A program made the position numbers and the translations under genes. The notes beneath the pieces were generated by a model. That model saw only the letters and a list, made by a program, of their open reading frames with translations, did not search any database and was not told where the DNA came from. Below, one piece after another: positions 35,854 through 63,865 of a stretch of DNA of 64,000 nucleotides. The stretch lies in assembly GCF_022846255.1 (NCBI RefSeq), contig NZ_AP025682.1; one strand, 5' to 3'. The DNA comes from Escherichia coli (GTDB lineage: Bacteria; Pseudomonadota; Gammaproteobacteria; Enterobacterales; Enterobacteriaceae). The first letter of the stretch is position 1. Each line of letters begins with the position of its first letter.

Positions 35854-35888
35854 GCCCCGCCAGCTGTAATAGCGGGGCTTCGTTTTTC
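35854..35888 (+). terminator. Intrinsic terminator after ykgJ
   Basis: GCCCCGC...GCGGGGC stem followed by TTCGTTTTTC. Confidence 0.6.
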
Positions 35889-36038
35889 AGGGACAACAAA
35901 ACCTGAAACTTCTTCCATTTTCCAGCAACAATGCCTCTTCTTCTGTAGCGTTCTCCGGATCTACATCATCCTGAAGTAGCGCGATATGATCACTGACTGT
36001 CCGCATCAGAATATGAAAAGCAACGTTTTTAACCTATA

Positions 36039-36065
36039 AAAATGGCGCTATATTTGCGCCATTTT
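36039..36065 (-). terminator. Intrinsic (bidirectional) terminator after yagU
   Basis: AAAATGGCGC-TATATTT-GCGCCATTTT perfect 10-bp stem flanked by A/T runs. Confidence 0.6.
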
Positions 36066-36079
36066 TATCATTCAAAGCA

Positions 36080-37314: not shown

Positions 37315-37390
37315 TGGTGCCGATAAGAGGAGTCGAACCTCCGACCTTCGCATTACGAATGCGCTGCTCTACCAACTGAGCTATATCGGC
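37315..37390 (-). tRNA. thrW: tRNA-Thr (anticodon CGU)
   Basis: 76-nt cloverleaf read on minus strand: acceptor GCCGATA/TATCGGC, D-arm GCTC-AGTTGGTA-GAGC, anticodon loop TTCGTAA, T-arm GGAGG-TTCGACT-CCTCT, encoded CCA. Confidence 0.95.
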
Positions 37391-45238: not shown

Positions 45239-45270
45239 CTGCCGGATGGCGTTTAATCGCCTTCCGGCAG
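45239..45270. repeat. REP-like palindromic unit / terminator after pepD
   Basis: CTGCCGGATGGCG...CGCCTTCCGGCAG imperfect palindrome between convergent pepD and prfH. Confidence 0.55.
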
Positions 45271-45282
45271 TTTCATCCTTCA

Positions 45283-45897
45283 TTATCCTTCGATAAAAGC
45301 CATCCCTGTGAACGTTCGTCGCGGGTTGCCACGTTCAATCTGGTGATGGAACATTCGCCGCTGCGATTTCAGCGCCGCGCTATTTTCCTGTTGCTGTTGT
45401 TCCAGCTTCCAGGCAATCAGTAATCGCGCCAGCCGCTTGTTAGCATGCTGACTGCGCTCTGACTGAACCTTCACGCTAATACCGGATGCCAGATGCGTGG
45501 CGCGTACCGCCGAGTCGGTTTTATTGACATGTTGACCGCCCGGCCCCGACGAACGCAGCGTCTCATAACGGATCGCGTCGGATTGTTCCTGCTCATCAGC
45601 GGTAAAACGCCCAATGCCCAGAAACCAGTTTTTGCGCCCATGATGAGGCCGATACGGACTCGGACAAATCCACTGGATAGTGCCACACCAGCTTTCGCTT
45701 AGAGCCCATGCGTTATCGCCATCCAGAGAAATCAGCGCCGAACGCAGTGTGTCAGAGTAGCGACCCGTTTCTGTTTCCAGCACCGTTACCGCGACGTCCT
45801 GTCGGGTAGCTTCTTTAATCAGCCTGTCCAGTGCTTTTCTCACTGCGAGACAACATTCTTCCGGCCCCTGAGCAGAGGAGAGTTGTAGCAAGATCAT
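45283..45897 (-). CDS. prfH: Peptide chain release factor homolog PrfH (RF-H)
   Basis: 204 aa from [14 protein letters not shown]...; RF domain with [13 protein letters not shown]; ATG overlaps rtcB stop (ATGA). Confidence 0.85.
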
Positions 45898-47045
45898 CCT
45901 TTTTTCCCTCCACTGTTTTTGAGCGTCAGCACCGGGCGCAGTCGCGCGACAGGAATAATTAACCCAGCCAGCACCAGACATTGCACCACGCTTTCAGCCG
46001 ATTTATAGGCTTGTGGCGCTTCTTCAAAGATGAGTTGTTTATCGCGACAAATTACCCGACTGCCAAGTTCAGTCCGCGAGAGTTGCGTCGCCGTGTATTT
46101 CGCTGCCAGACGCCCTTTACACTCGGTGCGCCCCCATTTACGCCCCGCCCCATGCGCCAGCGAGTGGAGCGTTTTTTCGTTCGCAACAGGTTTAACCAGC
46201 CAGGAGTAATCGCCGCGTGAACCGGGAATAATCACCAGACCGTTGTCATCCGGCGTGGCGCCTTTACGATGCAACCAGCCCTGTTGATCGCCGATTTGGC
46301 ACGCGCTAACAAAGTTATGCGCCACATCCAGAACCGGACTTCCGGTGGCCTTAACTTGTTGCATTATGCGCAAAGCGATCAGCTGGCGATTAATACGCGC
46401 AAACGCCAGCGCATCGTCATGTTCCGCAATATACCGTAGCGCGTCGTCACTGCCTTCAGGCAAACCATGATGCGAAAACGAGGCAATATGCCGCTGTAAA
46501 ATAGACTGCCCCAATCCCCTCGAGCCGCTATGAACCAGCAGTTGCAGATGCTGCGCATCCAGACCAGCCAGTGCAAACAGTTCCGCGTCGATAATTTGAT
46601 CAATCTGTTGCAGTTCTGCGAAGTGGTTACCGCCACCGATGGAGCCAAGCGAGTTGTGCCACGGATGCTGTGCAAATGCTGACGGCAGGTTTTCCTCCAG
46701 CCAGCTTTCTTCAGCAACGTCATCCAGATCTGATAATCGCTTTTCAAACTTATCGGCGTTGTATTTGCGAGCGAGAATATCTGTTTGCCATAGCGCCATG
46801 CCGCAGCCGATATCATTGCCGACCAGTGCCGGGTAAAAACGGCCTACGGAGAAGAACGCTGCGCCAATCGGGTAGCCGCGTCCGGGATGTAAATCTGGCA
46901 TCCCCACAACGCGCTGCATGTTGGGTAAATTTGCCGTGGTGTGTAATTGTTGGATCGCTAAACTCTCGATCCACAGGTCATCAGATGCGATGGTAAATAC
47001 CGCATCGGATAAGGGACGAATATATTTGCCCATGTACCATTCCAT
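45894..47045 (-). CDS. RtcB-family RNA ligase paralog coupled to prfH
   Basis: 383 aa; RtcB metal-binding motifs (...GGNHFAELQ..., ...HGAGR...); translationally coupled upstream of prfH. Confidence 0.85.
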
Positions 47046-47222
47046 TTATGAATAAAAATCAGGAAATGGCAGACGAATCCAGGGCAAGAAAAAAGAATTA
47101 ATCCTGGAAAGGTCTGCAAAGAGTCATTGATAAAGGATTTGTCATGATTTACCTCCTTGCAGTTTGTGGAATAAGAAAACGCGCACATACTAGACGGGCG
47201 TTATTTTCATTGCAAGCTGGAT

Positions 47223-47675
47223 TTAATGTTGCGGTTTATATCGCATATAAAAATTAGTAAACCACGTTCCCCGGCATTCAACGCGCTGCTGCTTAACTGT
47301 CTGAAAACCATAACGTTCAAAAAAGGGTTTTGCGGTTATGCTGGCGTCCACCGTAAGTTCGGATTCAGACTTAATCAATGGTTTTAACAAAGCGCTGGCA
47401 ACTCCGCGTCGGGTGTATTCCGGTTCAACAAATAACATATCGATATAATGTCCAATGCGGGTAATAAAACCAACCGGTTGTGCATTAATAACTGCAACCC
47501 GCACTTGTGATTTCGCGAGTTTCTCCTTCCAGCGAGATTCGTCAATCTGCGCCCAGGCGGCAATTTGCTGTGGAGAATAGTGCTGACTCGCCGTCATCGT
47601 AACAGCTCGAAGGAAAATAGCGCATAGTTGCTGAAAATCACCAGGCTGATAGTTTCTTATTTGTATGTTATTCAT
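47223..47675 (-). CDS. yafP: GNAT-family N-acetyltransferase YafP
   Basis: 150 aa; last gene of dinB-yafN-yafO-yafP. Confidence 0.85.
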   Translation of the reverse strand: MNNIQIRNYQPGDFQQLCAIFLRAVTMTASQHYSPQQIAAWAQIDESRWKEKLAKSQVRVAVINAQPVGFITRIGHYIDMLFVEPEYTRRGVASALLKPLIKSESELTVDASITAKPFFERYGFQTVKQQRVECRGTWFTNFYMRYKPQH

Positions 47676-47684: not shown

Positions 47685-48083
47685 TCAAAAACGCATGCGA
47701 AACGCTTCTGCCATTTTCCCAATTTTATGCATTTGGTTGTTATCTCGAGCCAGTTTATGAGGTTCAGGTTTCAGAATGGCAATGAGCAACCATGCTTGCT
47801 CATCAAACGCACCCTGACAATATACCAAATGCGCTGCGTCATTCGTTCTGCTGAATTGGCGCAACTGTGGCGGAAATGGATTATTCACATTTGCCAGATG
47901 AATATGAGCAACTCGCTCAAATTTGATTAATGGCCAGGTAAACGAGTCGTCGTAGAGTGCATCGCGACCAAATATATCTGGCAAAACACCGTCACGCTTA
48001 TAGGAAATAAAATCCGCCGTTAACGCATCAAGTTCCTCTGCTGTAAGTTGCAGGCGAATAAGTTTTGTTTTGAATACCCGCAT
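47685..48083 (-). CDS. yafO: Ribosome-dependent mRNA interferase toxin YafO
   Basis: 132 aa, immediately downstream of yafN. Confidence 0.85.
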   Translation of the reverse strand: MRVFKTKLIRLQLTAEELDALTADFISYKRDGVLPDIFGRDALYDDSFTWPLIKFERVAHIHLANVNNPFPPQLRQFSRTNDAAHLVYCQGAFDEQAWLLIAILKPEPHKLARDNNQMHKIGKMAEAFRMRF

Positions 48084-48085
48084 CC

Positions 48086-48379
48086 TTATTCCTTAAAGTC
48101 ATTGAAATCATCATCCGTCATATCATTAAGATATTGTTCAGCGCGGCGTGTAATTTCCTCTAATCTTGCGGCACTCGGACGGAAGCGCGCCTTAACCAGT
48201 TTTTTCTCCTCTTGTTCAGCAAGCATGTCCATTAACGCTTCAAATGCGCTGGCACTTAAGAGATATCCTGCGGGGCGATTATTAGAAAGAACCGCAACCG
48301 GTTGATCAATAAAGTATTTAGCTGGGTTTTTACGTAACTCAGTGATATTGACCGATTTTTCAGCGAGAATTCGATGCAT
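48086..48379 (-). CDS. yafN: Antitoxin YafN (Phd/YefM fold)
   Basis: 97 aa, MHRILAEKSVNITELRKNPAKYF... Confidence 0.85.
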   Translation of the reverse strand: MHRILAEKSVNITELRKNPAKYFIDQPVAVLSNNRPAGYLLSASAFEALMDMLAEQEEKKLVKARFRPSAARLEEITRRAEQYLNDMTDDDFNDFKE

Positions 48380-49556: not shown

Positions 49557-50480
49557 TTAACGCGTTCGCTGCGAAAGCACCTGCTGCTTATCCAGCTTTT
49601 GCACCAGCGGCTGCACCACTTTATCCCCATGCTGACCAAAGTATTGATACAGCGTATCGGACGCGCTTTTAGTCAGCACCATAATCTCAATGCGCCGGTT
49701 GCCCGCGCTTTGCGGATTTTTCGCGTCCAGCAGCATCTGGTCCGCCATTGCGCTCACCTGCATCACTTTATCTTCCGGCATTCCTGCCTCTTCCAGCACC
49801 CGACGAGCCGAAAGCGCGCGGTCACCCGAAAGGTTCCAGTTGTTGTAGATATTGTTTTTGTAGGCCATCGCATCGGTATGCCCGGTAATAATAATTTTGT
49901 TATCGAGCGAGTCGAACACTGGCGCGAGCTCCACCAGCAGCGTTTTAAAGAACGGCATAATCTGCGCGCTGCCGCGTTCGAACATATTGCGATTCTGGTC
50001 GTCTTTAATCAGCACGCGTAATCCCTGCGGGACAATCTCCATCTCCAGATTCGCTTCCATATGCGCATCACGGGCAATGGTGTTGATGCTGGTTGCCAGC
50101 TCACCAAGCTCGGTGGCGGATTTCTTCTTCAGCAGCGCCGTTTTCTCGTTGACGTCGCGCGCTTTTTTCTCCGTCTCTTCCGGCACCGCCACGGTGGCAG
50201 GTTTTGACGGATGAGACGGGCTGATTTTATTTAACGGCGACAGCCCACCACCGTTAAAAATCGACTGCCCGTGCAGCGCGGCGATAATGCTTTCACGCTC
50301 GGATTTACTGACGCTATTGACAATCCACAGCGTCATAAATAGCGCCATCATCGCCAGGGTAAAGTCGGCGAACGCTACCTTCCACGCCCCGCCGTGGTGC
50401 CCGGCATGATTCTTTTTGATCTGCCGCCGGACGATGGTGGTTTTTGCCCCACGCTCGCGGCGGTTGCCCGTCTTTCTCAT
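49557..50480 (-). CDS. lafU: Lateral-flagellar stator protein, MotB-like
   Basis: 307 aa from MRKTGNRRERG...; TM segment then C-terminal OmpA-like peptidoglycan-binding domain. Confidence 0.85.
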   Translation of the reverse strand: MRKTGNRRERGAKTTIVRRQIKKNHAGHHGGAWKVAFADFTLAMMALFMTLWIVNSVSKSERESIIAALHGQSIFNGGGLSPLNKISPSHPSKPATVAVPEETEKKARDVNEKTALLKKKSATELGELATSINTIARDAHMEANLEMEIVPQGLRVLIKDDQNRNMFERGSAQIMPFFKTLLVELAPVFDSLDNKIIITGHTDAMAYKNNIYNNWNLSGDRALSARRVLEEAGMPEDKVMQVSAMADQMLLDAKNPQSAGNRRIEIMVLTKSASDTLYQYFGQHGDKVVQPLVQKLDKQQVLSQRTR

Positions 50481-50482
50481 GC

Positions 50483-51346
50483 TTATTCTTGCTCCAGCAT
50501 CGCATTCACCCATGCATCGAGGTTGGCGAAGGTCGGTTTGGACGCCAGATGCAGCAGCTTACGCCCGGCGTCCACCGCCAGCAGCGTCGGTTTGCCGCCC
50601 GCCTGGGCCACCAGCACGGTACGCACACACTCCAGCAGCGAATGTTCCGCCCGCGCCTGCTGTTCCATGGCGTTGGCGAGCGGGTCCATCAGGCAGTAGC
50701 AAATAAACACGCCTAAAAATGTCCCCACCAGCGCTGCCGCCACTTTCAGGCCAATCAGGGCGATAGAACCGTCAATTGACTGCATGGTGATGATGATGCC
50801 CAGCACTGCCGCGCAAATACCAAATCCCGGCATCGCTTCGGCGGTCCGTTGCAGCGAGCGTGACGGCGTTAACAGCGACTCTTCAGCGGTGTCCAGCTCC
50901 TGATCGAGAATGCCTTCCAGTTCATGGGCGTCGATTTTACCCATCGCCATCAGGCGAAAGTTATCGGCAATAAAAGTCACCAGCCGCTTCTGGGTTAACA
51001 CCAGCGGGTATTTCTGGAAAACGGTACTCTCTTCCGGCTGCTCAATATGCTGATCCAACATCCGCAGACCGCCGTTTTGTACCATTTCAAGCAACTCATA
51101 CAGGCACATTAATAGCTGGCGCTGAAACTCCGGCCCGAGCTGTTTTTTACTGATCACGCCTTTAATTTGATGGGCAATCTCTTTCAGCACATGTTTCGGG
51201 TTCCCAATAATCATCGCCCCGAAACCCGCACCCAAAATAATGATCATTTCCGCCGGTTGCCAGATAGCCACTAATTGGCCGCCCGCTTCAAAATAACCGC
51301 CAAATACGCAGCCGAGCACCACCAGTAAACCTAATATTTTTTGCAT
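50483..51346 (-). CDS. lafT: Lateral-flagellar stator protein, MotA-like
   Basis: 287 aa, four TM segments, MotA/TolQ/ExbB family. Confidence 0.85.
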   Translation of the reverse strand: MQKILGLLVVLGCVFGGYFEAGGQLVAIWQPAEMIIILGAGFGAMIIGNPKHVLKEIAHQIKGVISKKQLGPEFQRQLLMCLYELLEMVQNGGLRMLDQHIEQPEESTVFQKYPLVLTQKRLVTFIADNFRLMAMGKIDAHELEGILDQELDTAEESLLTPSRSLQRTAEAMPGFGICAAVLGIIITMQSIDGSIALIGLKVAAALVGTFLGVFICYCLMDPLANAMEQQARAEHSLLECVRTVLVAQAGGKPTLLAVDAGRKLLHLASKPTFANLDAWVNAMLEQE

Positions 51347-51358
51347 GATTTCTTCACT

Positions 51359-52078
51359 TTAATTCGGATAGACAAAATCACGAATTTTCTGCGCGATCTG
51401 TTTATTCAGTTGACAAATTCGGGCCTCGGTTAGCCCTAATACCAGCGCAATCTCTTTGAGATTCATCTCATGCTGGTAATACATGGAGAGGATCAGTTGC
51501 TCTTTTTCGCTTAATTGTGAAAGCGCGTGTTGCAGCATTTTCTGCGTGACAAACTGATCTTCCAGGTCTCTGCCAGCAAGCGGAATACCCGGTCCTTCGC
51601 CGTTCAGCAGTTCGTCCAGGCTGGCGAGCGTTTCCGCCCCTTCCAGTTGCTGATATTCGAGATAATCTTCATGCGAGATCCCTTCCTCAGCCAGCTCCTG
51701 CCACTCCGGTTCGTGCCCCAGTTTTTTACGCGTTTCGCGAATCAGGTCTTTCATCTGATGATATTTCTGTCGCAGCTGGCGCGGTCGCCAGTCGAGAGCG
51801 CGCAGCTCATCCAGGATCGCACCGCGAATACGGTGCACGGCATAGCCCGCAAAACCTTCGTCCGGCAGCCCATAGCGACGAATGGCCTTCAACAGCCCCA
51901 TTAACGCCGTTTGTTCCATATCCTGACGGTCAATAATGCAATTACACTGCGGGGCAAGGTGCCGCACCACTTTACGCACCAACGGTAAATAGGCCTGCAA
52001 GTAGTGGCTCTCCTGCTGCGGGGTTAATACCGGCGCGGCAGCAAATTCTTCTGACTCGAATAATACGTCCTGTAGCAT
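51359..52078 (-). CDS. lafS: Sigma-28 (FliA)-type sigma factor of the lateral system
   Basis: 239 aa; region 2 and region 4 HTH (...LKEIALVLGLTEARICQLNKQIAQKIR...). Confidence 0.85.
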   Translation of the reverse strand: MLQDVLFESEEFAAAPVLTPQQESHYLQAYLPLVRKVVRHLAPQCNCIIDRQDMEQTALMGLLKAIRRYGLPDEGFAGYAVHRIRGAILDELRALDWRPRQLRQKYHQMKDLIRETRKKLGHEPEWQELAEEGISHEDYLEYQQLEGAETLASLDELLNGEGPGIPLAGRDLEDQFVTQKMLQHALSQLSEKEQLILSMYYQHEMNLKEIALVLGLTEARICQLNKQIAQKIRDFVYPN

Positions 52079-52097
52079 GTTTATATCCGCCTGGTGA

Positions 52098-52565
52098 TTA
52101 CTGGAAGACCACTTTTTTCACCAGTAAATCCTTATACGGTGCGCTCATTTTGCGACGCTGAAGATCTTTCTTTAACGCATCCGAAATCAGTTTGCGGATG
52201 GCAGATATTTTCATGCCGCGCAAATCTTCAAATTTCATTTCCGTCAGGCATTCAACTGCAATACTTTGATACAGAGGCTCCTGATGTTTTATTTTTTCCG
52301 CCTCTTTGTCACTGGCGACCACCATCACTAATTCCGCCGACAAATAATGATCCGCGCCGTTGTTGTCATGCAAAGTGACAATGGTTTCCGGCAGCGTCAC
52401 AAATACGCTCTTGCTCTCATCCAGAGCTTCCACCGATTCCGTTTGCGCGGCGGTAGTCGGTTTTCCTTTTCCGGCATAATGATGCCAGACACTCCATCCT
52501 GCTCCAGCGCCGACCACCAACGCCAGAACGGCGCTGACCACGCCTGCCACCACGATTTTCTTCAT
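52098..52565 (-). CDS. lafF: FliL-like flagellar basal-body-associated protein
   Basis: 155 aa, single N-terminal TM segment. Confidence 0.75.
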   Translation of the reverse strand: MKKIVVAGVVSAVLALVVGAGAGWSVWHHYAGKGKPTTAAQTESVEALDESKSVFVTLPETIVTLHDNNGADHYLSAELVMVVASDKEAEKIKHQEPLYQSIAVECLTEMKFEDLRGMKISAIRKLISDALKKDLQRRKMSAPYKDLLVKKVVFQ

Positions 52566-52572
52566 ATTGCCT

Positions 52573-53634
52573 TTACACTTTGATCAAAACGGATTCGTTC
52601 TGTTGAAATTGAGGCGCATCATCAAGCTGTAAGGCGGCACTCACCTCTTCCTGCTGATGGCCCGACTGTTGTTGCTGCTGCGACTGCCCTTCGGAGGAGA
52701 CCTGTACGTTCACCTCCATAAAATTTTGCGCCGTCAGATGCTGGCGGAGATCGTCGCTAAACTGCTGTAACGCGCGGCAAACTTCACTTTGGTTCGCGCC
52801 GATGTGCACCATCAGTTTGCCGTTGTCGAGTTGTACGGCGATCTCGAGCTTGCCAAGCGACGGTGGATCGAGACGGATGGTGGAGATCTGCTGTTGTTTG
52901 TTGAGCTGAAAGTGGATCTGATCTTTCAACAGCGTCGTCAGTTTTTCGCCCAGTTCGTCGATCGAAAGCGTGGCTGGTTTGGCGACAATCTCCTGATGAT
53001 CGCTGACCAGCTCCGGCGTCTTAACCTGCAACACCGCACGCGCAATAACCAGTTCGCTGTCCGACACTTTTTCCGTTTTACGCTCGACCTGCGGGCGCGC
53101 GTTCACACGGGTTAGTTCAGGTTTCGGGCGAGCTGGCTGTGTTGAGACGCGCGGCTGCGTCGGTGCAATGGCATGTAAATCTTCACTGGCGTAAGTCGCC
53201 AGTCTGGCCTGCTGTTCGGGTTTCGCCTGCGGCAACTGACCGATCAGCTCCTGCAACTGCGGCGGCAACGGCGTGAGTTCCTGCTGCTGCGTCGGGCGTT
53301 GCGCCGCGTTTTGCACCACCGCTTTCGTCAATTGCTGGATAACCGGCGATGTTGCGACGTTTCGCGGCTGCGGCGTGTCCTGATGCGGCGCGGCAGGTTG
53401 CGGAAGTAACAGCGCCATTAGCGCCTGCATCGCCACCGGATCGTTCTCCTGCGGGCGCGTCGCCTGTTGCTGACTGGTTTTTGCGCTATGAACGCGCTCC
53501 GCCACCGCCGCGACCGCCATTTTCGGCAGGGTAAACGCGGGCGCGTTTTCACTACTCACCGGCGGTAAAATATCCGCTTTCAGCGACGCCGTTTCCGCAA
53601 GTGTTCCGAGCGTGGCAAGCAATGCCGGATTCAT
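52573..53634 (-). CDS. lafE: Hook-length control protein, FliK-like
   Basis: 353 aa, Pro/Gln-rich middle, C-terminal FliK domain (...RLDPPSLGKLEIAVQLDNGKLMVHIGANQ...). Confidence 0.75.
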   Translation of the reverse strand: MNPALLATLGTLAETASLKADILPPVSSENAPAFTLPKMAVAAVAERVHSAKTSQQQATRPQENDPVAMQALMALLLPQPAAPHQDTPQPRNVATSPVIQQLTKAVVQNAAQRPTQQQELTPLPPQLQELIGQLPQAKPEQQARLATYASEDLHAIAPTQPRVSTQPARPKPELTRVNARPQVERKTEKVSDSELVIARAVLQVKTPELVSDHQEIVAKPATLSIDELGEKLTTLLKDQIHFQLNKQQQISTIRLDPPSLGKLEIAVQLDNGKLMVHIGANQSEVCRALQQFSDDLRQHLTAQNFMEVNVQVSSEGQSQQQQQSGHQQEEVSAALQLDDAPQFQQNESVLIKV

Positions 53635-53942
53635 GACTTCTCCGAAAGTAAATTAACAATTGAGTAGGCCAGTACGCCTTCCTGATGCCGCTGATGCTGT
53701 TCCATACGCGCCTTCAACACTTCTGCACGCTGCTCGCGCCGTTTAATCAGGGCATTAAACGCGCCGTACAGCTGCGCCTTCACCGCACACAACTGCGCCG
53801 CGTCGGTTTCCGCCGCCACGTAATCGTGAAACTGGCGCATCAACTGCTGATGCAGTGCCGGAAGGCGTCGCCAGCGTTGCTTGTCGAGGGCTTCGTTCAT
53901 CGCTTCAACCAGCGCGAAAAGTTGCCTGCGTTGTTTTTCCAT
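53631..53942 (-). CDS. lafD: FliT-like flagellar export chaperone (by position after fliS homolog)
   Basis: Helical 103 aa from MEKQRRQLFALVEAMNEALDK; alternative GTG start at 53984 would overlap lafC. Confidence 0.5.
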   Translation of the reverse strand: MEKQRRQLFALVEAMNEALDKQRWRRLPALHQQLMRQFHDYVAAETDAAQLCAVKAQLYGAFNALIKRREQRAEVLKARMEQHQRHQEGVLAYSIVNLLSEKS

Positions 53943-53946
53943 CGTC

Positions 53947-54339
53947 TTAACCCAGCTTGCCCGAAAGCCCTTCCCAGCCTTCACGCAGGTTGCTTAAGAT
54001 CAGCATCACTTCATCGATTTTCTCTGCCGACAGTTCGCCGCTGGCCTCATACAAGCGATACACACAGTGGTCATAGAGGCGCGAAAGGTTGACCACCAGC
54101 TCGCCGCCAGTTTCAAACTCCAGCGAACTGGTGAGCGCATTGAGAATGTCGATGCATTTATTGATGCTCTGGGCTTTCTTCTCGAAACGCCGCCCTTCAA
54201 TATGGCTTTTGGCGCGTTCCAGCTCGTCCATCAGACCAGAAAACAGCACCAGCACCAGTTCCAGAGGCGATGCCGCCGCAGTACGCGCCGCGAGATCGAT
54301 CTCTTTATATTGCGAATAGCCGTCCTGTACTTGGTACAT
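53947..54339 (-). CDS. lafC: FliS-like flagellin-specific chaperone
   Basis: 130 aa, MYQVQDGYSQYKEIDLAARTAAASPLELVLVLFSGLMDELERAK... Confidence 0.8.
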   Translation of the reverse strand: MYQVQDGYSQYKEIDLAARTAAASPLELVLVLFSGLMDELERAKSHIEGRRFEKKAQSINKCIDILNALTSSLEFETGGELVVNLSRLYDHCVYRLYEASGELSAEKIDEVMLILSNLREGWEGLSGKLG

Positions 54340-54361
54340 CTTTAGGGATATTCCTTCTGAG

Positions 54362-55678
54362 TTACGCGAATGCCGCCATGCTGGCTTTCATGGTGTACAC
54401 CTCGACCAGCGTGTTGGTGTACTCCTCGAGATAACGGTCGTAGTTGGCGTTATAGGTATCAGTAAGCTGATCGCCTTCGTCCTGAATTTTGCTCATCTGA
54501 TCGTCAATGTTCTGCTGGCGCAGGGTGATGATGCCGTTGCTGGAGTCCGTGTAGGTGTTAATCAGGTCGTCCATCTGTGCCACCATGCTGTTGTCGCCAA
54601 CGAAAATAGAGGTCAGACCGTCAGGATTTTTCGCCATTTCGTCGTTGAACTGGTCGGAGTCAATCTGTAAGTGGCCGTGAGAATCAAGCGTGATGCCATA
54701 GTCAACAATCGACACCCCGTTGTAGCTGGCATGGGCGATATCATCGAGCTGGTTCGCCAGTGAGCTGAGTCCGGCGTCACCCGCAAATACCCCGGCGCTG
54801 GTACTGTCATCACCGTGGGTGGTCAACGAATCAACCGTATCAATCAAGGTGTTATAAGCATCAACAAAGGTCTGTACTTTCTCCTGGCTGGCGCTGGAAT
54901 CTTCGCTGATGTTAAAGGTAGTGAGATCGCTGTCAGAATCGCTGACTTCGGTGAAAGTCATGGTGACGCCGGGGATCACATCATCAAAGGTATTGCTGCT
55001 ATTAGTGATCTCTGGCCCCGTGGCGCTGCCGAGATGAATAATCGCGTCCTGGGCGGAGGAAACATCCGTAGCAACAGGCGCGCTGGCGCTGTCGTTGCTG
55101 GCGTCATGCCCCGTTACGCTCACCGAAAATGCGCTCTGCGCCCCGGTGCTATCGGAGGTGAGCATAATCGTGGTGGTGCCGTCGGTTTTTACCAGTGCCG
55201 CCGACACGCCCGGATTGTCATCAGAGTCGTTAATCGCATTCACCAGTTCACTGGCGTCGATAAAACCGTCGCCGTCACCGTTCTGATCTGCCGCCGACAG
55301 ATCAATATCCATGGTGCTGTCGCCCATCGTCAGTTCGAAGGTGCCGGTAGCGGAAAAGGCGTCGTCGCCCATACTGAACGTGGTTTGCTGCCCCTGTGCC
55401 AGTTGCTCAACGAAAAATGAGTAGCTTCCCGCCTGCACCTGCGAGTTAGCGGAAACGGTCGCCGAGTCATTATTGCTGGTGGCGGCAAACGTCACCGGGC
55501 CGTCAGTATCGCTGTTCAGCGCGTCAACGGCGCTCTGAAAATCGCTCAACGCTGAGCTGAGCGAGTCCAGGCCGCTGCTTTCAGCATCCAGCTCGCTCTG
55601 CTTCTCCTGCAAATTGGCTGCCTGAGTGGCAACATCCGCATAAGCGATTTCTTGCGCAATGGTTCTTGGGTTGATCAT
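54362..55678 (-). CDS. lafB: Flagellar filament cap (HAP2), FliD-like
   Basis: 438 aa, N- and C-terminal heptad regions typical of FliD. Confidence 0.8.
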   Translation of the reverse strand: MINPRTIAQEIAYADVATQAANLQEKQSELDAESSGLDSLSSALSDFQSAVDALNSDTDGPVTFAATSNNDSATVSANSQVQAGSYSFFVEQLAQGQQTTFSMGDDAFSATGTFELTMGDSTMDIDLSAADQNGDGDGFIDASELVNAINDSDDNPGVSAALVKTDGTTTIMLTSDSTGAQSAFSVSVTGHDASNDSASAPVATDVSSAQDAIIHLGSATGPEITNSSNTFDDVIPGVTMTFTEVSDSDSDLTTFNISEDSSASQEKVQTFVDAYNTLIDTVDSLTTHGDDSTSAGVFAGDAGLSSLANQLDDIAHASYNGVSIVDYGITLDSHGHLQIDSDQFNDEMAKNPDGLTSIFVGDNSMVAQMDDLINTYTDSSNGIITLRQQNIDDQMSKIQDEGDQLTDTYNANYDRYLEEYTNTLVEVYTMKASMAAFA

Positions 55679-55812
55679 TGATGACTCCGGATAACGATGT
55701 CAGGTTATTGGCAAAAGGCGTGCCAATAATTTTTATGTGAATAATCAATAAATTGAAAAAGGGGCGGAAATGGTGTTTCCGGTCTGGCGGAAAAAAGCCT
55801 GCCGCTGAAAGC

Positions 55813-55873
<61 letters not shown>

Positions 55874-55883
55874 AAGTCCGCCA

Positions 55884-56798
55884 TTACTGCAGCAGGCTGG
55901 AAACCATGCTGGACATGCTGTTGGACTGTTTCAGCATGGTGATGCCGGTCTGCATCAGCACCTGCTGTTTAGTCATGTTGGACGCTTCCGTCGCGTAGTC
56001 GGTATCCATAATGTTACCGATAGCGACTTCGGTGTTGTCCTGCATACTGGTCAGGTTATTAGCGGTGTCGTTCAGACGGTTGATAGACGCCCCCAGCTTG
56101 GACTGGATCTGCGAAACATCATCCATCGCGGTAGAAATGCTGGTGATCATCTGGTTAGCCGAGCCAGACGCAGTCAGCTCAGTACCGCCAGAAACGCCTG
56201 CGGTGCCAGTGGTGTCAGCCTGATCCGCACTGAAGGAGTTGCTGATAGCAGAAAGATCCGTCACCAGGGTATTCAGCTGGCTTGAAATATTCACGGTCAT
56301 GGTGTCGGAAGATTCCGCGCCCACCTGGAAAGTTACTGCGCTCTGGAACAGACCGTCAGTACCGGTGTTGCTGGTACCGGAAACACCGAACAGGTTGGTG
56401 CCGCCGTAAGTGGTGTTTTGCAGCATGTCAGACATCTGCTGACCCAGTTCATCGTATTCGTCCTGCATCGCCTGCAGATCGTCGTCGCTGTAGGTGCCGT
56501 TCGCTGCCTGAGTTGACAGGTCTTTCATACGACCCAGCACATCAGACATTTCGTCGAACATGCTGTCAGCGGTTTGCAGCATCGCGGTGGCATCATTGAT
56601 GTTGCTCAGCGCCACACCCATACCGCTGGACTGTGCTGTCAGACGGTTAGCAATTTGTTTGCCTGCGGCGTCATCGGCAGAAGAGTTAATCCGGTTACCC
56701 GTTGCCAGGCGTTCCATAGATGTAGACAGAGAAGAGCTGCTTTTACTGATTGCATTAACGGCGGCCATTGAGGCGTTATTGGTGTTAATAGATAACAT
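55884..56798 (-). CDS. lafA: Lateral flagellin
   Basis: 304 aa from MLSINTNNASMAAVNAISKSSSSL... to ...MLKQSNSMSSMVSSLLQ with AAGGAG SD (track ORF extends 22 codons upstream). Confidence 0.85.
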   Translation of the reverse strand: MLSINTNNASMAAVNAISKSSSSLSTSMERLATGNRINSSADDAAGKQIANRLTAQSSGMGVALSNINDATAMLQTADSMFDEMSDVLGRMKDLSTQAANGTYSDDDLQAMQDEYDELGQQMSDMLQNTTYGGTNLFGVSGTSNTGTDGLFQSAVTFQVGAESSDTMTVNISSQLNTLVTDLSAISNSFSADQADTTGTAGVSGGTELTASGSANQMITSISTAMDDVSQIQSKLGASINRLNDTANNLTSMQDNTEVAIGNIMDTDYATEASNMTKQQVLMQTGITMLKQSNSMSSMVSSLLQ

Positions 56799-57232
56799 GA
56801 TACTGCTCCTTGGGATTAATCGTTTTCGTTTCGATACCCTGTAAAAACGACACCTCAGGAGCAAACTTAAAATCGCCGTTAAAATTTTTTCGCCACGTAT
56901 TATCCGATGCCACTTTTAGCTAAAAAAAGCAGAGGTTAAATTCAGATAAAAAGATTATTAGCAATATCTGCCACATGGCCAGGAATCAAAATATGTCTTT
57001 ATCAAATGCTTGATATAGTTAAGATTGTCATCAATTAACGCGTTTTCTTCTCAATGTACTGATGCCAAAATTTACATTGCGTTGCAAATAGTACACGTTT
57101 AGCTATTGTGCCTGTCCTGTCATTTCGTTACATTTCCACGCCATATAGTGATTAAGAATAATCCTATTACCATAAAATATTAATTATCACGCAGAAAAAT
57201 CATCTTCTCAGGGACGTATAAGACTGTGCTTT

Positions 57233-58126
57233 ATGCAAAGCACTATCAGGAAACATTTATCCCTTGCTAAGGTAAACTCAACTATGAGTATTATTATCAA
57301 CAACTGGCGGATGGACCCGTCGCTTAATGCCTTAATACATTGCGAAACGGGTGAAACACGTCGTCTCGGCGAATACCATTTTATTTTGCTGGAAACATTA
57401 GCAAAAAATGCCGATGTGGTTTTATCGCGATCTTATTTATGTGCCGAAGTATGGAAGAACCGCATTGTCGGCGGTAACAGCCTGCCGACGGCGATCCACG
57501 CTCTGCGCGTTGCCATTGATGATGACGGCAAGCAACAGAACATTATTAAAACCATCCCGAAAAAAGGGTACCTGTGCAATAAAGAGTATGTGTCTTTGCC
57601 GGAGTCATCGCCTGCAGAAGCGCTGATTATTACCGACCAGATACAAGATACAGCCCCAGAAGAGATATCTTCGACAACACCGCCTGTACCTGTTAGAAAA
57701 AAACATAAAGGACTGATGGGGTTAGCGTTGGCCGCAGCTGTTATATTTATTGGCTCGACCGTGGGGTATTCACACTTGAAAAGTACACCTGACGCCCCGC
57801 AACTGGTAAAAGAGTCAATTAACAGTCCAAGAATAAAAATATTTCATTTAACTTCTGCTGGAGAAAATAATTCCGTACCGTTACTATCACAAACCCTCGC
57901 ACCAGGAAAAGACAAACTCGATAATTTATTGTCAGCGCATAATATGACAATGACAACCTATTATAAATATGTTCGTAACCGACTGGAGAGTGATATTGTT
58001 CTGCGCAACCAGTGCAATGGTAGCTGGCAATTAACCTTTAATGTGGAAGGTTGGCAGAACAGCGATATTAATAGCGCGATGTATCAGAATTTAGAGAAGT
58101 TGTTAAATACTGTGCAGAAATGCTGA
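57233..58126 (+). CDS. lafZ: ToxR/CadC-like membrane-anchored transcriptional regulator
   Basis: 297 aa; N-terminal OmpR/PhoB-type winged helix, one TM segment (GLMGLALAAAVIFIGSTV), periplasmic C-terminus; divergent from lafA. Confidence 0.65.
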   Translation: MQSTIRKHLSLAKVNSTMSIIINNWRMDPSLNALIHCETGETRRLGEYHFILLETLAKNADVVLSRSYLCAEVWKNRIVGGNSLPTAIHALRVAIDDDGKQQNIIKTIPKKGYLCNKEYVSLPESSPAEALIITDQIQDTAPEEISSTTPPVPVRKKHKGLMGLALAAAVIFIGSTVGYSHLKSTPDAPQLVKESINSPRIKIFHLTSAGENNSVPLLSQTLAPGKDKLDNLLSAHNMTMTTYYKYVRNRLESDIVLRNQCNGSWQLTFNVEGWQNSDINSAMYQNLEKLLNTVQKC

Positions 58127-58141
58127 TGAGTGCCAATATAT

Positions 58142-58178
58142 GCCGGATGCGACGCTAAACGCGTCTTATCCGGCCTAC
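58142..58178. repeat. REP (palindromic unit)
   Basis: GCCGGATGCGACGCTAAACGCGTCTTATCCGGCCTAC, canonical REP between lafZ and lafW. Confidence 0.7.
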
Positions 58179-58184
58179 CGATAA

Positions 58185-59162
58185 TTACCCCAATAAATTC
58201 CTCACCGTCTGGCTGGAAATTCGCGCCTGACCGTTCACAGCCTGCAATAAAACCTGATAGTTATGATTGGCGCTATCAAGCACACCGCCGAGATTTTCCG
58301 ATGCCTGCACCGCGTTTTCCGTTTGCGGGAAGCGCGACATGCCGTCGATCAGCTGCCGCGCTTTTTCCTGCTGCACCGCCATCTTCGCGCGCTGCTGATT
58401 AATGTTTTCTAACGTCTGAGAAATCCCCGCCCCACCCTGTTGCAGGCTTTGCGCTAAGCGGTCCGCCTGTGACGGTTCGGCAAAGGTTTTTAGCGGCATA
58501 AACGCTGATTTATCACCATCGGTACGCACGCTTAAGGTTCGTTCGATATGGGGCCACTGTTTTTCAGTGGTGGAGAAGCTGATGCCATCGGCGTGTTGAT
58601 GCATCTGAACGCCCACGCGGCGCAGAGCGTTGGTCAGCCGCGTCTGATACTGCGCGGCGCTGTCATCCTCAGACAGCATCACCGCCGAAAGCTGAGTCTG
58701 CCGCCCGTCAGAGACGCTGAACATGCGCGTTCCCGGCGTGGGATTGTGTACCAGATTCGTCAGATCCGGCGAGTGAAAAGTCACCCGCGCTTCCCCCTGC
58801 AACACTGGCTGCAACTGGCGGTCCACCGCGCCGCCGGAAAGCGCGGTGCGTTTGTCCAGCATCTGCATCAGCGCTGAACTCTGCGCCTGCCCGCCCTTAC
58901 GCTGGCTGTGACGGTAATCGAGCAACTGCTGTTCCAGTTGCCCGAGATAGTGATCCGCCTGCTGCAACGTGGTGAGCTGATCGTTAAGCTGCACACTGTA
59001 ACGCTGCGGGCGAGTGGTAATCAGCGGCGAGGCCGGATATTCACTCGCCGTCGCCGGGAGTTTTTGCCGCACCGCCTGAGTGGGCGCAACGGTTGACGAC
59101 GATACCGCAGCGCTATGCGCGCCGCCGGTGGCGAGTGATGAAGATGTAAGTCCGACCTGCAT
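58185..59162 (-). CDS. lafW: Flag-2 protein of unknown function
   Basis: 325 aa, Ser/Gln-rich, no recognisable domain; placed by synteny between lfgL and lafZ. Confidence 0.5.
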   Translation of the reverse strand: MQVGLTSSSLATGGAHSAAVSSSTVAPTQAVRQKLPATASEYPASPLITTRPQRYSVQLNDQLTTLQQADHYLGQLEQQLLDYRHSQRKGGQAQSSALMQMLDKRTALSGGAVDRQLQPVLQGEARVTFHSPDLTNLVHNPTPGTRMFSVSDGRQTQLSAVMLSEDDSAAQYQTRLTNALRRVGVQMHQHADGISFSTTEKQWPHIERTLSVRTDGDKSAFMPLKTFAEPSQADRLAQSLQQGGAGISQTLENINQQRAKMAVQQEKARQLIDGMSRFPQTENAVQASENLGGVLDSANHNYQVLLQAVNGQARISSQTVRNLLG

Positions 59163-59178
59163 ACGGTTCCTGAAAGAG

Positions 59179-60108
59179 TTAGAGAACGCTGAATAAATTC
59201 AACTCACTCACTTTCGAGTAAGTCTTGAGGGTAGCTTCCATTGCCACTTCCAGTCCGGTAAAGGTGATCGACGCCGGGCCGTAATCGAGATCCTGTAAAG
59301 AACCAATCAACTCATCATTAGAGGTAGAAATATCGGTCTGCGCATCGCTCAGCATCGACATGGTGTTCTGCGTCTCGCCAAGCGACGCAATCGAGGCGTT
59401 GAGATCGTCCGAAGCGGTATCCACCACATCAACGGCGTTCTGAAGATCGCTCTGCACCTGCGGATCTGCCGGGTCAACATCCGGGTTTTGCAGCTCCTGC
59501 GACAGGGAATTAAGGGTGTTGAGCACGTCTAAATTACTGCCGAAGAAATCGCTCGCCGCCACGTTGGTATCCACTTCCACGCCGTTCGACACCGTAGTCT
59601 GACGATGGTCACTGTTACCCTGATAGCTATAGCTGTCGGTCACACCATCACCGTCATCATCCACAGCCACAATCGGCGGCTGATCGTTGATGGTGCCGCC
59701 AAAGACGTAATGCCCGTCTTCATCCTGATAGTTCAGCGCCGCGACCATTGATTCGGTGAGCGACTCAATATCCTGGCCGAGGCTTGCCAGCGAATCGGCG
59801 GTATTGGTGCCGTTCGCTGCTTCCAGCAGGTCGTCACGCACCGCCAGCAGGCTGTTGTTGACGCCATCAAGAATAGACTCCTGCTGGCTTAAGCCCGCCG
59901 ACGCGGAGTCGATATTGCTCTGATACTGTTCAATCGCCGACTGCTGGCGGTTTAACTGGGTGATGCGCGTGGCGGCGATTGGGTCATCCGACGGCTGCAA
60001 AATTTCCTTGCCGGTTGCCATCTGCTCGACCACATGCGCCAGAGAGCCGGAGAGATTATTAAAACTTTGCGTCATCGAGACGTAGGTTTGTTGGGTGGTT
60101 ACTCGCAT
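59179..60108 (-). CDS. lfgL: Hook-filament junction protein (HAP3), FlgL-like
   Basis: 309 aa from MRVTTQQTYVSMTQSFN with GGGAG SD; flagellin-like terminal helices. Confidence 0.8.
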   Translation of the reverse strand: MRVTTQQTYVSMTQSFNNLSGSLAHVVEQMATGKEILQPSDDPIAATRITQLNRQQSAIEQYQSNIDSASAGLSQQESILDGVNNSLLAVRDDLLEAANGTNTADSLASLGQDIESLTESMVAALNYQDEDGHYVFGGTINDQPPIVAVDDDGDGVTDSYSYQGNSDHRQTTVSNGVEVDTNVAASDFFGSNLDVLNTLNSLSQELQNPDVDPADPQVQSDLQNAVDVVDTASDDLNASIASLGETQNTMSMLSDAQTDISTSNDELIGSLQDLDYGPASITFTGLEVAMEATLKTYSKVSELNLFSVL

Positions 60109-60122
60109 TTTCGCGCTCCCGC

Positions 60123-61499: not shown

Positions 61500-61582
61500 G
61501 TTGGGTCCTTACCGGTAAATCGTGCCGGTTAAAAGCGGCGTGAAGTTGGGGATTCTTAAGTGGATAATGGTGCGCGCTGATG

Positions 61583-61690: not shown

Positions 61691-61704
61691 GCAAAGCGCG
61701 CCCC

Positions 61705-63784: not shown

Positions 63785-63821
63785 GTTCTGCCTGTTTAAA
63801 TACAGTGAGTTATGTGCTCTT

Positions 63822-63858: not shown

Positions 63859-63865
63859 TTTCGCC

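Follow-up and report, generated by a model that had tools for sequence, protein, structure and literature searches.

How is rtcB2-prfH, a gene pair that mends damaged ribosomes, regulated in E. coli, and is the copy found in the 64,000-nucleotide stretch of DNA analysed here (the window) a working one? We found no explanation of the regulation of E. coli rtcB2-prfH in the searchable literature, and one paper on the module states that the natural expression level decides whether PrfH is needed. Both genes lie on the minus strand of the window: rtcB2 (45894..47033) encodes a release-factor-H-coupled RNA ligase of the RtcB family, of 379 aa, and prfH (45283..45897) encodes peptide chain release factor H. 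The ORF listing and the raw sequence bear out the initial annotation in letting the TGA of the ligase ORF overlap the prfH ATG at 45894-45897, in giving the release-factor homolog 204 aa (ORF 45283..45897, from the ATG at 45897-45895) and in considering both genes intact, with no frameshifts or internal stops in either. Its 383-aa ligase holds as the longest ORF (45894..47045, from the first ATG to the stop TGA at 45896-45894) but not as the protein, which is likely to start at the ATG at 47033-47031 and to be 379 aa long, since the upstream ATG (47045) is not conserved (it is ACG in strain GPEC389), RefSeq annotates a product of 379 aa, and the alignment of NCBIfam NF007153 to the longest ORF begins at residue 5.

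The plus-strand TCAT at 45894-45897 is ATGA on the minus strand, an overlap of the rtcB2 stop and the prfH start by exactly 4 nt. A Shine-Dalgarno-like GGAGGG, read from the sequence within the 3’ end of rtcB2 (45906..45911, minus strand), lies 8 nt 5’ of the prfH ATG. Judging from this overlap and the internal Shine-Dalgarno, the two genes are arranged for coupled translation. A stop-start overlap, or a gap of no more than 2 nt, was seen in 14 other loci from 12 genera (the only loci where the rtcB2/prfH junction could be read), and a GGGGAG/GGAGG element occupies the same junction position in Salmonella, Kosakonia, Cronobacter, Limnobaculum, Pseudomonas and Tahibacter. Between the convergent pepD and prfH, an imperfect REP-like palindrome read from the sequence (CTGCCGGATGGCG-6 nt-CGCCTTCCGGCAG, 45239..45270) probably marks the 3’ ends of both transcripts; it was not called in the terminator scan because no T-run follows it. 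The promoter/terminator scan found no terminator after yafP or after prfH.

On their profile matches, the family assignments of the two products are unambiguous. RtcB2 scores 641 bits against NF007153 (cutoff 407), with residues 5-382 on profile positions 1-378 of 379, and 620 bits against TIGR03073 ‘release_rtcB’ (cutoff 272), and it also matches Pfam PF01139. Its motifs (GNDIGCG from residue 72, GGGNHF from 133, HSGSRGLG from 168, VAHNF from 237 and HGAGR from 294) align with those of Thermus and Pyrococcus RtcB, and the catalytic GMP-accepting histidine, H294, is present; prfH sits directly 3’ of rtcB2 in the same orientation with an ATGA junction, as expected of a release-factor-H-coupled RtcB. 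PrfH scores 328 bits against TIGR03072 ‘release_prfH’ (cutoff 167) and stays under the cutoffs of other release factors (prfB 94 bits, cutoff 370; prfA 83, cutoff 423; ArfB 34, cutoff 100), with a Pfam RF-1 domain at residues 106-194. It is 100% identical over 204 residues to chain 8 of PDB 7SA4, which is E. coli PrfH solved on the damaged ribosome. PrfH is a release factor without domain 1, its N-terminal part forming a pocket for the cleaved, 3’-phosphorylated A1493, and the protein of the window likewise lacks RF domain 1, its 204 aa aligning to RF2 residues 143-316 only. The suggestion in the initial annotation to look for a motif replacing GGQ is moot, because the GGQ peptidyl-tRNA hydrolase motif is retained at residues 120-122; nothing is replaced, and the codon-recognition part alone differs. 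Of the residues listed in PMC9304027 as forming the pocket for the cleaved A1493 3’-phosphate and the contacts with h18, S12 and H69, all are found (R52, S53, R83, H86, R88, K89, N90, R181, H184 and R189), as is the further rRNA-contact residue H85. Both genes are thus full length, with all catalytic and recognition residues present.

What such a pair does is published knowledge, to which the gene pair itself adds nothing new. The ribotoxins colicin E3 and CdiA-CT(ECL) cut 16S rRNA between A1493 and G1494, which leaves the ribosome stalled. Only on ribosomes with this cut does PrfH release the peptide (PMC9304027), and RtcB2 then seals the 16S rRNA of the 30S subunit thus freed. RtcB2 of strain ATCC 25922 re-ligates cut 30S and not cut tRNAs (PMC9304027), deletion of either rtcB2 or prfH sensitises ATCC 25922 cells to colicin E3 (PMC9223846), and the order of rescue and repair events has been refined in PMC13166195. 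The rescue or repair of damaged ribosomes, which the initial annotation had called ‘proposed’, has thus since been established experimentally (PMC9304027, PMC9223846, PMC13166195). RtcB2 in the window differs from that of ATCC 25922/JCM 5491 at 2 of 379 residues (377/379 identical), with H126 and A139 in place of R126 and V139; of these, A139 agrees with the family consensus, seen in 235 of 236 homologs. We found no argument against gene function in the sequence of rtcB2 or prfH, and identity (PrfH) or near-identity (RtcB2) to the tested proteins supports the view that RtcB2 and PrfH of this strain would be a functional repair pair. We therefore consider it very probable that the window genes make up an intact E. 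coli RtcB2-PrfH ribosome rescue-and-repair module, including a putative promoter and leader switch of its own. The full-length rtcB2-prfH locus is present in 2709 of 5426 complete E. coli genomes, about half; considering that the module is a well-studied defence against ribotoxins and intact in so many of them, its presence would mainly mark the strain as likely to be tolerant of colicin E3, unlike K-12.

The sole fresh point of the locus is a conserved leader mini-gene upstream of rtcB2. Directly 3’ of the yafP stop, alignments point to a promoter-like site, TTGCAA-17 nt-TAGTAT (47187..47215, minus strand), followed by a GC-rich GTGCGCG. It matches the consensus at 8 of 12 positions, which falls under the threshold of the promoter scan, so that the scan of the yafP-rtcB2 spacer listed no promoter. 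The arrangement TTGCnA-17-TAnnAT is kept in Klebsiella, Citrobacter, Providencia, Proteus, Limnobaculum and Pseudomonas despite different upstream genes. Further downstream, the alignments show a leader ORF of 15 codons (MTNPLSMTLCRPFQD and a stop; 47098..47145, minus strand) with a strong Shine-Dalgarno, AAGGAGGT (47158-47151), 6 nt 5’ of its ATG. A short ORF with its own Shine-Dalgarno precedes the ligase gene in 21 leaders, and such a leader ORF was found in Escherichia, Klebsiella, Citrobacter, Salmonella, Kosakonia, Cronobacter, Limnobaculum, Proteus, Providencia, Pseudomonas and Tahibacter. It is 13-16 codons long across these taxa, with a variable N-terminal half and a conserved yUUUGCrGrC near the end. 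Enterobacterales conserve the whole set of Shine-Dalgarno, ATG, ORF and four RNA segments (see below), which can still be made out in Pseudomonas and Tahibacter. A metagenome scan gave 26 matches with leader context, all at the rtcB2 locus (24 directly 5’ of rtcB2 or of a K-12-type remnant, and two on contigs that stop before the gene), and 15 further matches without that context. At gathering thresholds, Rfam returned just IS009 and a tRNA for the whole window, and a permissive scan of 46900-47350 gave sub-threshold chance matches only (STnc350 at 20 bits, cutoff 60), so that the leader does not correspond to any curated RNA family. In the literature that could be searched, which does not extend to Morita et al. 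2009 (J Bacteriol), we found no description of this leader for any of the Enterobacterales, E. coli included, and no ribosome-profiling or reporter evidence on the E. coli leader. From these features we infer an operon with its own promoter and a 15-codon leader ORF that is the counterpart of Pseudomonas aeruginosa PA5471.1, which senses ribosome stalling and thereby controls the homologous operon, armZ-prfH (PMC3516279, PMC12057347, PMC13041342).

The leader RNA, all on the minus strand, can pair in alternative ways. Segment 1 (CUGCAAGG, 47155..47162) overlaps the leader Shine-Dalgarno and can pair with segment 2 (RNAalifold columns 59-69 with 99-108). Segment 2 (CUUUGCAGAC, 47112..47121), which comprises leader codons 9-12, can pair with segment 1 or, via GCAGAC, with segment 3. 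A small hairpin, CCAGG...CCUGG (47079..47107), follows, with the leader stop UAA in its loop. In segment 3 (CGUCUGCCAUUUCC, 47062..47075), GUCUGC can pair with segment 2, or the whole segment can pair with the rtcB2 ribosome-binding site. Segment 4 (GGAAUGGUACAUG, 47031..47043) holds the Shine-Dalgarno region and AUG of rtcB2 and is complementary to segment 3.

Pairs between segments 2 and 3 were counted from segments tabulated by an anchor and from a mini-alignment; a MAFFT alignment of 15 leaders was left out of the pair counts because it misaligned segment 3 of Proteus and Providencia. Across 12 sequences, the segment 1:2 helix is 98% paired, yet its two sides never change together and so give no compensatory change, and the small hairpin is also 98% paired, with invariant stems and a variable loop. 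For segments 2 and 3, each of 21 leaders out of 21 has exactly one hexamer with full complementarity to segment 2 at 38-50 nt 5’ of the rtcB2 ATG, in four pair types (GCAGAC/GUCUGC, GCAGGC/GCCUGC, GCGGAC/GUCCGC and GCGGGC/GCCCGC). All cells are paired (100%), compensatory changes occur at two of the six pairs, and none of 500 shuffles attains the score, a statistic that is partly circular because segment 3 was located by its complementarity to segment 2. The RNAalifold helix between segments 3 and 4 (columns 151-164 with 187-199) contains one compensatory pair, A-U in six sequences and U-A in four, and the duplex is worth -12 to -14 kcal/mol in most Enterobacterales (-10.6 in Salmonella, -9.4 in Providencia). 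Covariation is limited to three positions, because most paired positions are invariant. In free-RNA folds, the rtcB2 start site (segment 4) is sequestered in 12 of 12 sequences; when folds are constrained as though a ribosome occupied the leader start or codon 4, the cost of opening it falls from about 11 to about 7 kcal/mol, with the same direction of change in all 12. Against this, the minimum-free-energy structures obtained under that constraint show the start site of several species paired again, with a different stretch of upstream sequence.

A nascent-peptide arrest motif (CRPFQD) was considered as the main cause of the conserved leader C terminus and rejected, because position 12 can be P, H, L, R, Q or S, because Arg11 becomes Gly exactly where the paired segment 3 base also changes, and because Pseudomonas leaders end differently.

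We propose that the leader likely switches rtcB2-prfH on in E. coli when ribosomes stall, since it is preserved throughout Enterobacterales and corresponds to PA5471.1, which has been characterised. At rest, segment 3 of the mRNA would pair with the ribosome-binding site and AUG of rtcB2, and segment 1 with segment 2, two pairings that would leave rtcB2-prfH poorly translated. A ribosome lingering on the leader start or first codons would hide segment 1, segment 2 would then capture segment 3, and the rtcB2 start site would become free. Such masking predicts constitutive rtcB2 expression when CCAUUUCC is mutated. Colicin-E3-cut ribosomes accumulate at start codons (PMC13166195). A cut ribosome parked on the leader AUG could cover segment 1, whereupon GCAGAC would capture GUCUGC and uncover the Shine-Dalgarno and AUG of rtcB2, from which the remaining intact ribosomes would make the repair enzymes. 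That enterobacterial rtcB2-prfH is in this way self-induced, by a damage sensor in its own mRNA, we put forward tentatively, as a serious possibility that may well not hold.

It is also possible, though rather unlikely, that the genes are intact and the upstream block is a mere promoter and 5’ UTR without a switch, in which the short ORF is untranslated or irrelevant, and that the operon is constitutive at a low level or receives read-through from the SOS-inducible dinB-yafNOP. Read-through from the yafP side is possible because no terminator is predicted between yafP and rtcB2, the mostly invariant leader positions could be explained by a protein-binding or promoter element, and ‘moderate’ natural expression has been called sufficient (PMC13166195). 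Nor is the overall leader fold unusually stable: the whole-leader fold of the window sequence is no more stable than its shuffles (z = -1.2), and fold stability alone is no argument for a switch. On the other hand, the block moves with rtcB2 into unrelated neighbourhoods (Limnobaculum, Proteus, Providencia and Pseudomonas), and a strong, correctly spaced Shine-Dalgarno is kept before 13-16 codons free of in-frame stops while the N-terminal codons diverge. The compensatory changes in GCAGAC/GUCUGC, one of which turns an Arg codon into Gly, and the experimental proof of a leader peptide for the Pseudomonas counterpart also argue against an inert leader.

A switch could, alternatively, act by transcription attenuation as in P. 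aeruginosa, through premature termination or Rho before rtcB2, rather than by masking of the start site. The homologous PA5471.1 system has been described as a four-segment transcription attenuator, and a U-rich stretch, CAUUUCCUGAUUUUUAUU, follows the segment 2:3 hairpin of E. coli. However, this hairpin is unlikely to be an intrinsic terminator because the U-run is set apart from the stem, and the terminator scan made no call there; if the hairpin did terminate, early stalling would turn the operon off, opposite to the Pseudomonas logic. Moreover, the leader stop and the rtcB2 AUG are just 52 nt apart, compared with about 250 nt in P. aeruginosa, and in Enterobacterales the Shine-Dalgarno and AUG of rtcB2 have their direct complement in segment 3, with a compensatory change. 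We accordingly regard attenuation as doubtful and masking of the start site as the preferred reading of the leader.

For the gene products, it is highly improbable that PrfH, in the manner of ArfB or Capnocytophaga PrfH, rescues stalled ribosomes on truncated mRNAs in general rather than specialising in decoding-centre damage: a tailed PrfH subfamily does rescue intact and damaged stalled ribosomes alike (PMC12829566), but the PrfH of the window is identical to EcPrfH, which neither bound nor released peptide on intact ribosomes (PMC9304027), and like it stops at residue 204 without the C-terminal tail that defines the separate Capnocytophaga-type subfamily (PMC12829566), placing it in the tail-less one.

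If the masking switch operates as proposed, the same switch would answer antibiotics that inhibit the decoding centre or elongation, and the E. coli module would be a functional counterpart of the Pseudomonas PA5471.1-armZ antibiotic sensor. The homology between this leader and the stalling sensor of Pseudomonas yields a concrete, testable hypothesis that would link ribosome damage to induced ribosome repair, and the leader would join the literatures on E. coli repair and on Pseudomonas MexXY antibiotic resistance, which now hardly cite each other. An indirect report has the K-12 gene ykfJ inducible by 4-azaleucine (PMC3516279).

Among the closest known systems is the module of ATCC 25922 (Tian et al. 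2022, PMC9304027; Maviza et al. 2022, 2026, PMC9223846 and PMC13166195), which occupies the same locus as that of the window, between pepD and yafP, and shares with it the ATGA overlap, the leader region, PrfH (100%) and RtcB2 (377/379). In the window, the toxin-antitoxin pair yafN-yafO is still present between dinB and yafP, whereas ATCC 25922 is without it. K-12 shares locus, leader and flanks, with 97-98% DNA identity over the retained parts; the initial annotation described its locus as degraded, and indeed ykfJ (b0235) and prfH (b0236) are annotated as pseudogenes. They are so because of a 1027-bp deletion between imperfect 9-bp repeats (8/9 matching), TACCCGGCA and TACCCGACA, which map to 46835-46827 and 45808-45800 of the window, so that K-12 is missing RtcB2 from residue 72 to the C terminus and the first 38 residues of PrfH. 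K-12 also has a 129-bp ERIC-like element just 5’ of the rtcB2 start, and the ERIC-like insertions of other strains all fall within the loop of the segment 3:4 helix, a placement that speaks for the proposed leader structure.

The RtcB1 ligase of the RtcB1-RtcA system (rtcBA) belongs to the same superfamily as RtcB2, PF01139, and has the same metal-ligand and GMP-histidine motifs. The rtcBA genes are under the control of the sigma-54 activator RtcR. RtcB1 is about 28% identical to RtcB2, its gene is in an operon with rtcA, and it mends cleaved tRNAs and not the colicin-E3-type cut in 16S rRNA (PMC9304027).

In P. aeruginosa, armZ (PA5471), an RtcB2-type gene, is followed by prfH (PA5470) with an ATGA overlap, as in the window. 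Upstream, both species have a promoter-like site, a Shine-Dalgarno GCAAAGGAGG and a short leader ORF with CUUUGCAGrC (..LCR..), then GUCUGCC about 43 nt 5’ of the ATG and a similar start region, AUGGAUUGG..AUGGGC (AUGGAwUGG..AUGGGC). The P. aeruginosa leader, MIQFSTLCRLRLA, fits the published PA5471.1 in its 13 codons, Q3 and F4 (PMC13041342), and we infer that it is PA5471.1 from that length and those residues rather than from a deposited sequence. The two systems differ in the number of leader codons (13 in P. aeruginosa, 15 in E. coli) and in the gap from leader to ligase gene, which in P. aeruginosa contains extra structures. ArmZ of P. aeruginosa has acquired an anti-repressor role towards MexZ, the mechanism there is reported as transcription attenuation and not start-site masking, and its segment 3:4 duplex is no better than shuffles.

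The rtcB2 leader can finally be compared with translational attenuation of the ermC/cat type, with which it shares a short leader ORF and, by our folds, four segments. In ermC attenuation, a ribosome stalled in the leader causes the RNA to re-pair and uncovers the downstream start. Stalling in the rtcB2 leader would similarly re-pair the RNA and expose the downstream Shine-Dalgarno and AUG. Unlike ermC/cat, the rtcB2 leader has no apparent drug-specific arrest peptide, as its amino acids vary and its conserved codons are explained by RNA pairing, and its segment 1 is the leader’s own Shine-Dalgarno, whereas in ermC/cat it is a stretch inside the ORF.

The window carries frsA, gpt and pepD and then, on the minus strand, prfH, the rtcB-like gene (rtcB2), yafP, yafO, yafN, dinB and lafU. 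The overlapping rtcB-paralog/prfH pair proposed in the initial annotation was recovered in our ORF list and in the raw sequence: the rtcB-like ORF (minus strand, 45894..47045) encodes 383 aa counted from its first ATG, prfH (minus strand, 45283..45897), read from the ATG at 45897-45895, encodes 204 aa, and the plus-strand TCAT at 45894-45897 corresponds to a coding-strand ATGA in which the TGA of the rtcB-like ORF overlaps the ATG of prfH, with GGAGGG (minus strand, 45911-45906) 8 nt ahead of the prfH ATG. The length of 383 aa first given for the ligase holds as read from the first ATG, but the true rtcB2 start is most likely 47033, giving 379 aa, because the first ATG (47045) is ACG in the alignment for strain GPEC389, RefSeq annotates rtcB2 in three strains as 1140 nt (379 aa), the alignment of NCBIfam NF007153 to the ligase ORF begins at residue 5, and the published numbering of the catalytic H294 agrees with a 379-aa protein. 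In two database proteins, P0003 (522 aa) and also P0039 (583 aa), each 83-96% identical to the window RtcB2, a single chain contains both the RtcB and the RF-1 Pfam domain; each could be a genuine rtcB2-prfH fusion that arose when the ATGA stop was lost, or could reflect a frameshift introduced by sequencing. Between the convergently oriented genes pepD and prfH there is a REP-like imperfect palindrome (window 45239-45270, 13-bp arms and a 6-nt loop), at which a terminator scan made no call.

In profile searches, the ligase ORF scored 641 bits against NF007153 (cutoff 407) and 620 bits against TIGR03073 'release_rtcB' and also matched Pfam RtcB, while the 204-aa ORF scored 328 bits against TIGR03072 'release_prfH' (cutoff 167) and well under the RF1, RF2 and ArfB cutoffs, with its Pfam RF-1 domain at residues 106-194. 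A search of solved structures found PrfH identical at 204/204 residues to chain 8 of 7SA4 (EcPrfH on a damaged ribosome) and no close relative of RtcB2, the top match being Thermus RtcB (E = 6e-31). Only R126H and V139A separate the window RtcB2 from the studied ATCC 25922/JCM 5491 protein; A139, present in 235/236 of the homologs retrieved, is the family consensus, and residue 126 varies. RtcB2 retains its metal-ligand motifs and H294, and PrfH retains GGQ at 120-122 and all of the rRNA-contact residues named in the cryo-EM paper (PMC9304027).

The proposal that the pair is a ribosome rescue and repair system is borne out by published work (PMC9304027, PMC9223846, PMC13166195). EcPrfH, which occupies the A site and recognises 3'-phosphorylated A1493, is active in peptide release only on 70S ribosomes with a 16S rRNA break between A1493 and G1494; EcRtcB2 rejoins cut 30S subunits and not cut tRNAs, the opposite holds for RtcB1, and both PrfH release and RtcB2 ligation are required to counter E3-like toxins in vivo (PMC9304027). 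Deletion of either gene sensitises ATCC 25922 to colicin E3, to which K-12 derivatives are sensitive because their locus is truncated (PMC9223846). Colicin-E3-cut ribosomes pile up at start codons, where PrfH frees fMet from them, and RtcB2 by itself can repair 30S and vacant 70S (PMC13166195). The operon, its stop/start overlap and the ~1-kb K-12 deletion had already been described by Baranov et al. 2006; given this and the published biochemistry and genetics, the interpretation is therefore right and its subject already known.

The intact rtcB2-prfH pair is thus known, and it is also common. Of the 5426 complete E. coli genomes searched with a 2051-bp locus query, 5415 had a match, and 2709 carried at least 80% of the query at one place, annotated there as 'RNA ligase RtcB family protein' and 'prfH'; the other genomes, among the matches listed, have K-12-type (~50% coverage) or other partial forms. 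The top complete-genome match was strain MS20657 (99.5% identical). Comparison with K-12 located the degradation noted for that strain, a deletion of 1027 bp between TACCCGGCA (window 46835-46827) and TACCCGACA (45808-45800), with both genes intact in the window.

Several neighbouring features vary among strains. The yafN-yafO toxin-antitoxin pair (window 47685-48379, minus strand), between dinB and yafP, is also present in K-12 and MS20657 and is absent from ATCC 25922/JCM 5491 and GPEC389 (comparison loci L001 and L003), where the frames of dinB and yafP share 4 nt. A Flag-2 lateral flagellar cluster that looks intact (window 49557-63859, minus strand) encodes full-length LafU (NF005273, 580 bits), MotA, a FliA-type sigma factor, lateral flagellin LafA (667 bits), FliD, FlgK and FlgI; K-12 and MS20657 have only lafU/lfhA remnants at this site. 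A tRNA-Thr(CGU) adjoins proA (window 37315-37390, minus strand) with no island inserted there, and in MS20657, the closest complete genome, the same tRNA carries a vat autotransporter island. The window also contains an apparently intact 1416-aa intimin/invasin-type inverse autotransporter ORF (14847-19097, minus strand), whose top NCBIfam domain, IatC_Nterm (643 bits), falls under the model cutoff, and, close to yagU, a 197-bit match to Rfam IS009 (35874-36074, minus strand).

The point that we did not find in the literature is a leader ORF upstream of rtcB2 (47145-47098, minus strand), in which AAGGAGGT is followed after 6 nt by an ATG and 15 codons encoding MTNPLSMTLCRPFQD. It is not annotated in any inspected RefSeq E. 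coli record, nor described for E. coli in the searchable literature, which did not reach Morita et al. 2009, where it may be mentioned. The ORF and its near-perfect Shine-Dalgarno are invariant in a yafP-rtcB2 spacer alignment of five E. coli strains, and with its flanks (47028-47216, minus strand) it comprises the Shine-Dalgarno, a promoter-like site that is weak by consensus, and four complementary segments including the rtcB2 start site. The same architecture was seen at RtcB2 loci from a genome scan (four Escherichia, two Klebsiella, one Citrobacter and one further Enterobacteriaceae). Scanning metagenomes for the DNA motif TTGCAGNCNTTNCCAGGANTAA produced 41 matches, 15 of them without leader context; the 26 with leader context were all the rtcB2 locus, 24 lying directly upstream of rtcB2 or a K-12-type remnant and two on contigs that end before the gene. 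The loci of more distant homologs (in Salmonella, Kosakonia, Cronobacter, Limnobaculum, Proteus, Providencia, Pseudomonas sp. YH-1, P. aeruginosa and Tahibacter) have a 13-16-codon ORF after GCAA(A)GGAG, with yUUUGCrGrC inside and a promoter-like TTGCnA-17-TAnnAT ahead of it despite differing upstream genes. The gene directly upstream of the leader is dinB in Salmonella, Kosakonia, Cronobacter and Citrobacter.

RNAalifold on 12 enterobacterial leaders predicted three helices: helix A, between segment 1 CUGCAAGG (overlapping the leader Shine-Dalgarno) and segment 2 CUUUGCAG (about leader codons 9-11); a small CCAGG/CCUGG hairpin with the leader stop codon in its loop; and helix C, between segment 3 CGUCUGCCAUUUCC and segment 4 GGAAUGGUACAUG (the rtcB2 Shine-Dalgarno and AUG). 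One pair of helix C is compensatory (A-U in 6 leaders, U-A in 4, mismatched in 2); the remaining predicted pairs are all invariant, speaking neither for nor against structure. Segment 2 GCAGAC is also complementary to segment 3 GUCUGC, and each of the 21 distinct leaders has a single hexamer that is a full complement of segment 2, located 38-50 nt ahead of the rtcB2 ATG, the pairs being GCAGAC/GUCUGC, GCAGGC/GUCUGC (with a G-U pair), GCAGGC/GCCUGC (Limnobaculum, Tahibacter), GCGGAC/GUCCGC (Proteus) and GCGGGC/GCCCGC (Providencia). In a mini-alignment, 100% of cells of the 2:3 helix were paired and 2/6 pairs compensatory, above 500/500 shuffles, with segment 3 chosen by complementarity. The segment 2 change in Proteus and Providencia converts leader Arg11 to Gly, which argues that the conserved feature is the RNA pairing rather than the peptide. 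In Proteus (locus L058, 1858-2006) rtcB2 codon 2, otherwise invariantly GGC, is GAC, and the GUCC of its segment 3 GUCCGC is able to form a perfect pairing with GGAC, a possible additional compensatory change that would tie segment 3 to the start region of rtcB2.

Strains differ in whether a palindromic, ERIC/IRU-like element is inserted at a site immediately before the rtcB2 start (window ~47047-47052). Among the loci compared (K-12 L002, L003, L005, L008 and L011), the insert measures 129 bp in K-12 (L002:3330-3460) and in Escherichia sp. L005, and GPEC389-type strains have one of ~56 bp; the site is empty in the window, ATCC 25922 and MS20657, and Klebsiella spallanzanii has an independent ERIC-like insertion just ahead of the rtcB2 start. 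All of these insertions fall inside the helix C loop.

In computed folds of the free RNA, the rtcB2 start site was sequestered in 12/12 sequences. A ribosome footprint on the leader start or codon 4 gave the 2:3 hairpin in most of the 12, two regaining the free fold at codon 4, and lowered the mean computed cost of opening the start site from 11.0 to 7.0 kcal/mol (10.4 with the footprint on codon 8 and 8.2 on the stop codon), with the start site re-pairing elsewhere in some constrained folds. For most Enterobacterales the energy of the 3:4 duplex lies between -12 and -14 kcal/mol, with -10.6 in Salmonella and -9.4 in Providencia, and the duplex is stronger there than ~90-99% of shuffles; in the two Pseudomonas leaders it was not above chance in the shuffle comparison. 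The whole-leader fold of the window sequence was no more stable than shuffles. From these models we infer that the leader may act as an ermC-like switch, in which a ribosome delayed at the leader start or first codons would cover segment 1; segment 3 would then be taken up by segment 2, leaving the start site of rtcB2 open. Since colicin-E3-cut ribosomes stall at start codons (PMC13166195), ribosome damage itself could be the inducer of rtcB2-prfH. Our own observations are of intact genes, their coupled arrangement, a conserved leader homologous to PA5471.1, and alternative complementarities that are conserved and show limited covariation; that PrfH acts in release on damaged ribosomes and RtcB2 then ligates them has been shown by others.

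PA5471.1 is the P. aeruginosa leader peptide that senses ribosome stalling and so controls the homologous armZ-prfH operon (PMC3516279, PMC12057347, PMC13041342); ykfJ, the K-12 rtcB2 remnant, is reported to be inducible by 4-azaleucine (reviewed in PMC3516279). The P. aeruginosa upstream ORF that we found, MIQFSTLCRLRLA, fits the published PA5471.1 (13 codons, Gln3, Phe4; PMC13041342), and sequence comparison identifies the E. coli leader ORF as its homolog and counterpart. The leader-to-ligase spacer is ~200 nt longer in P. aeruginosa, but the hexamer complementary to segment 2 is still found there 38-50 nt before the ATG.
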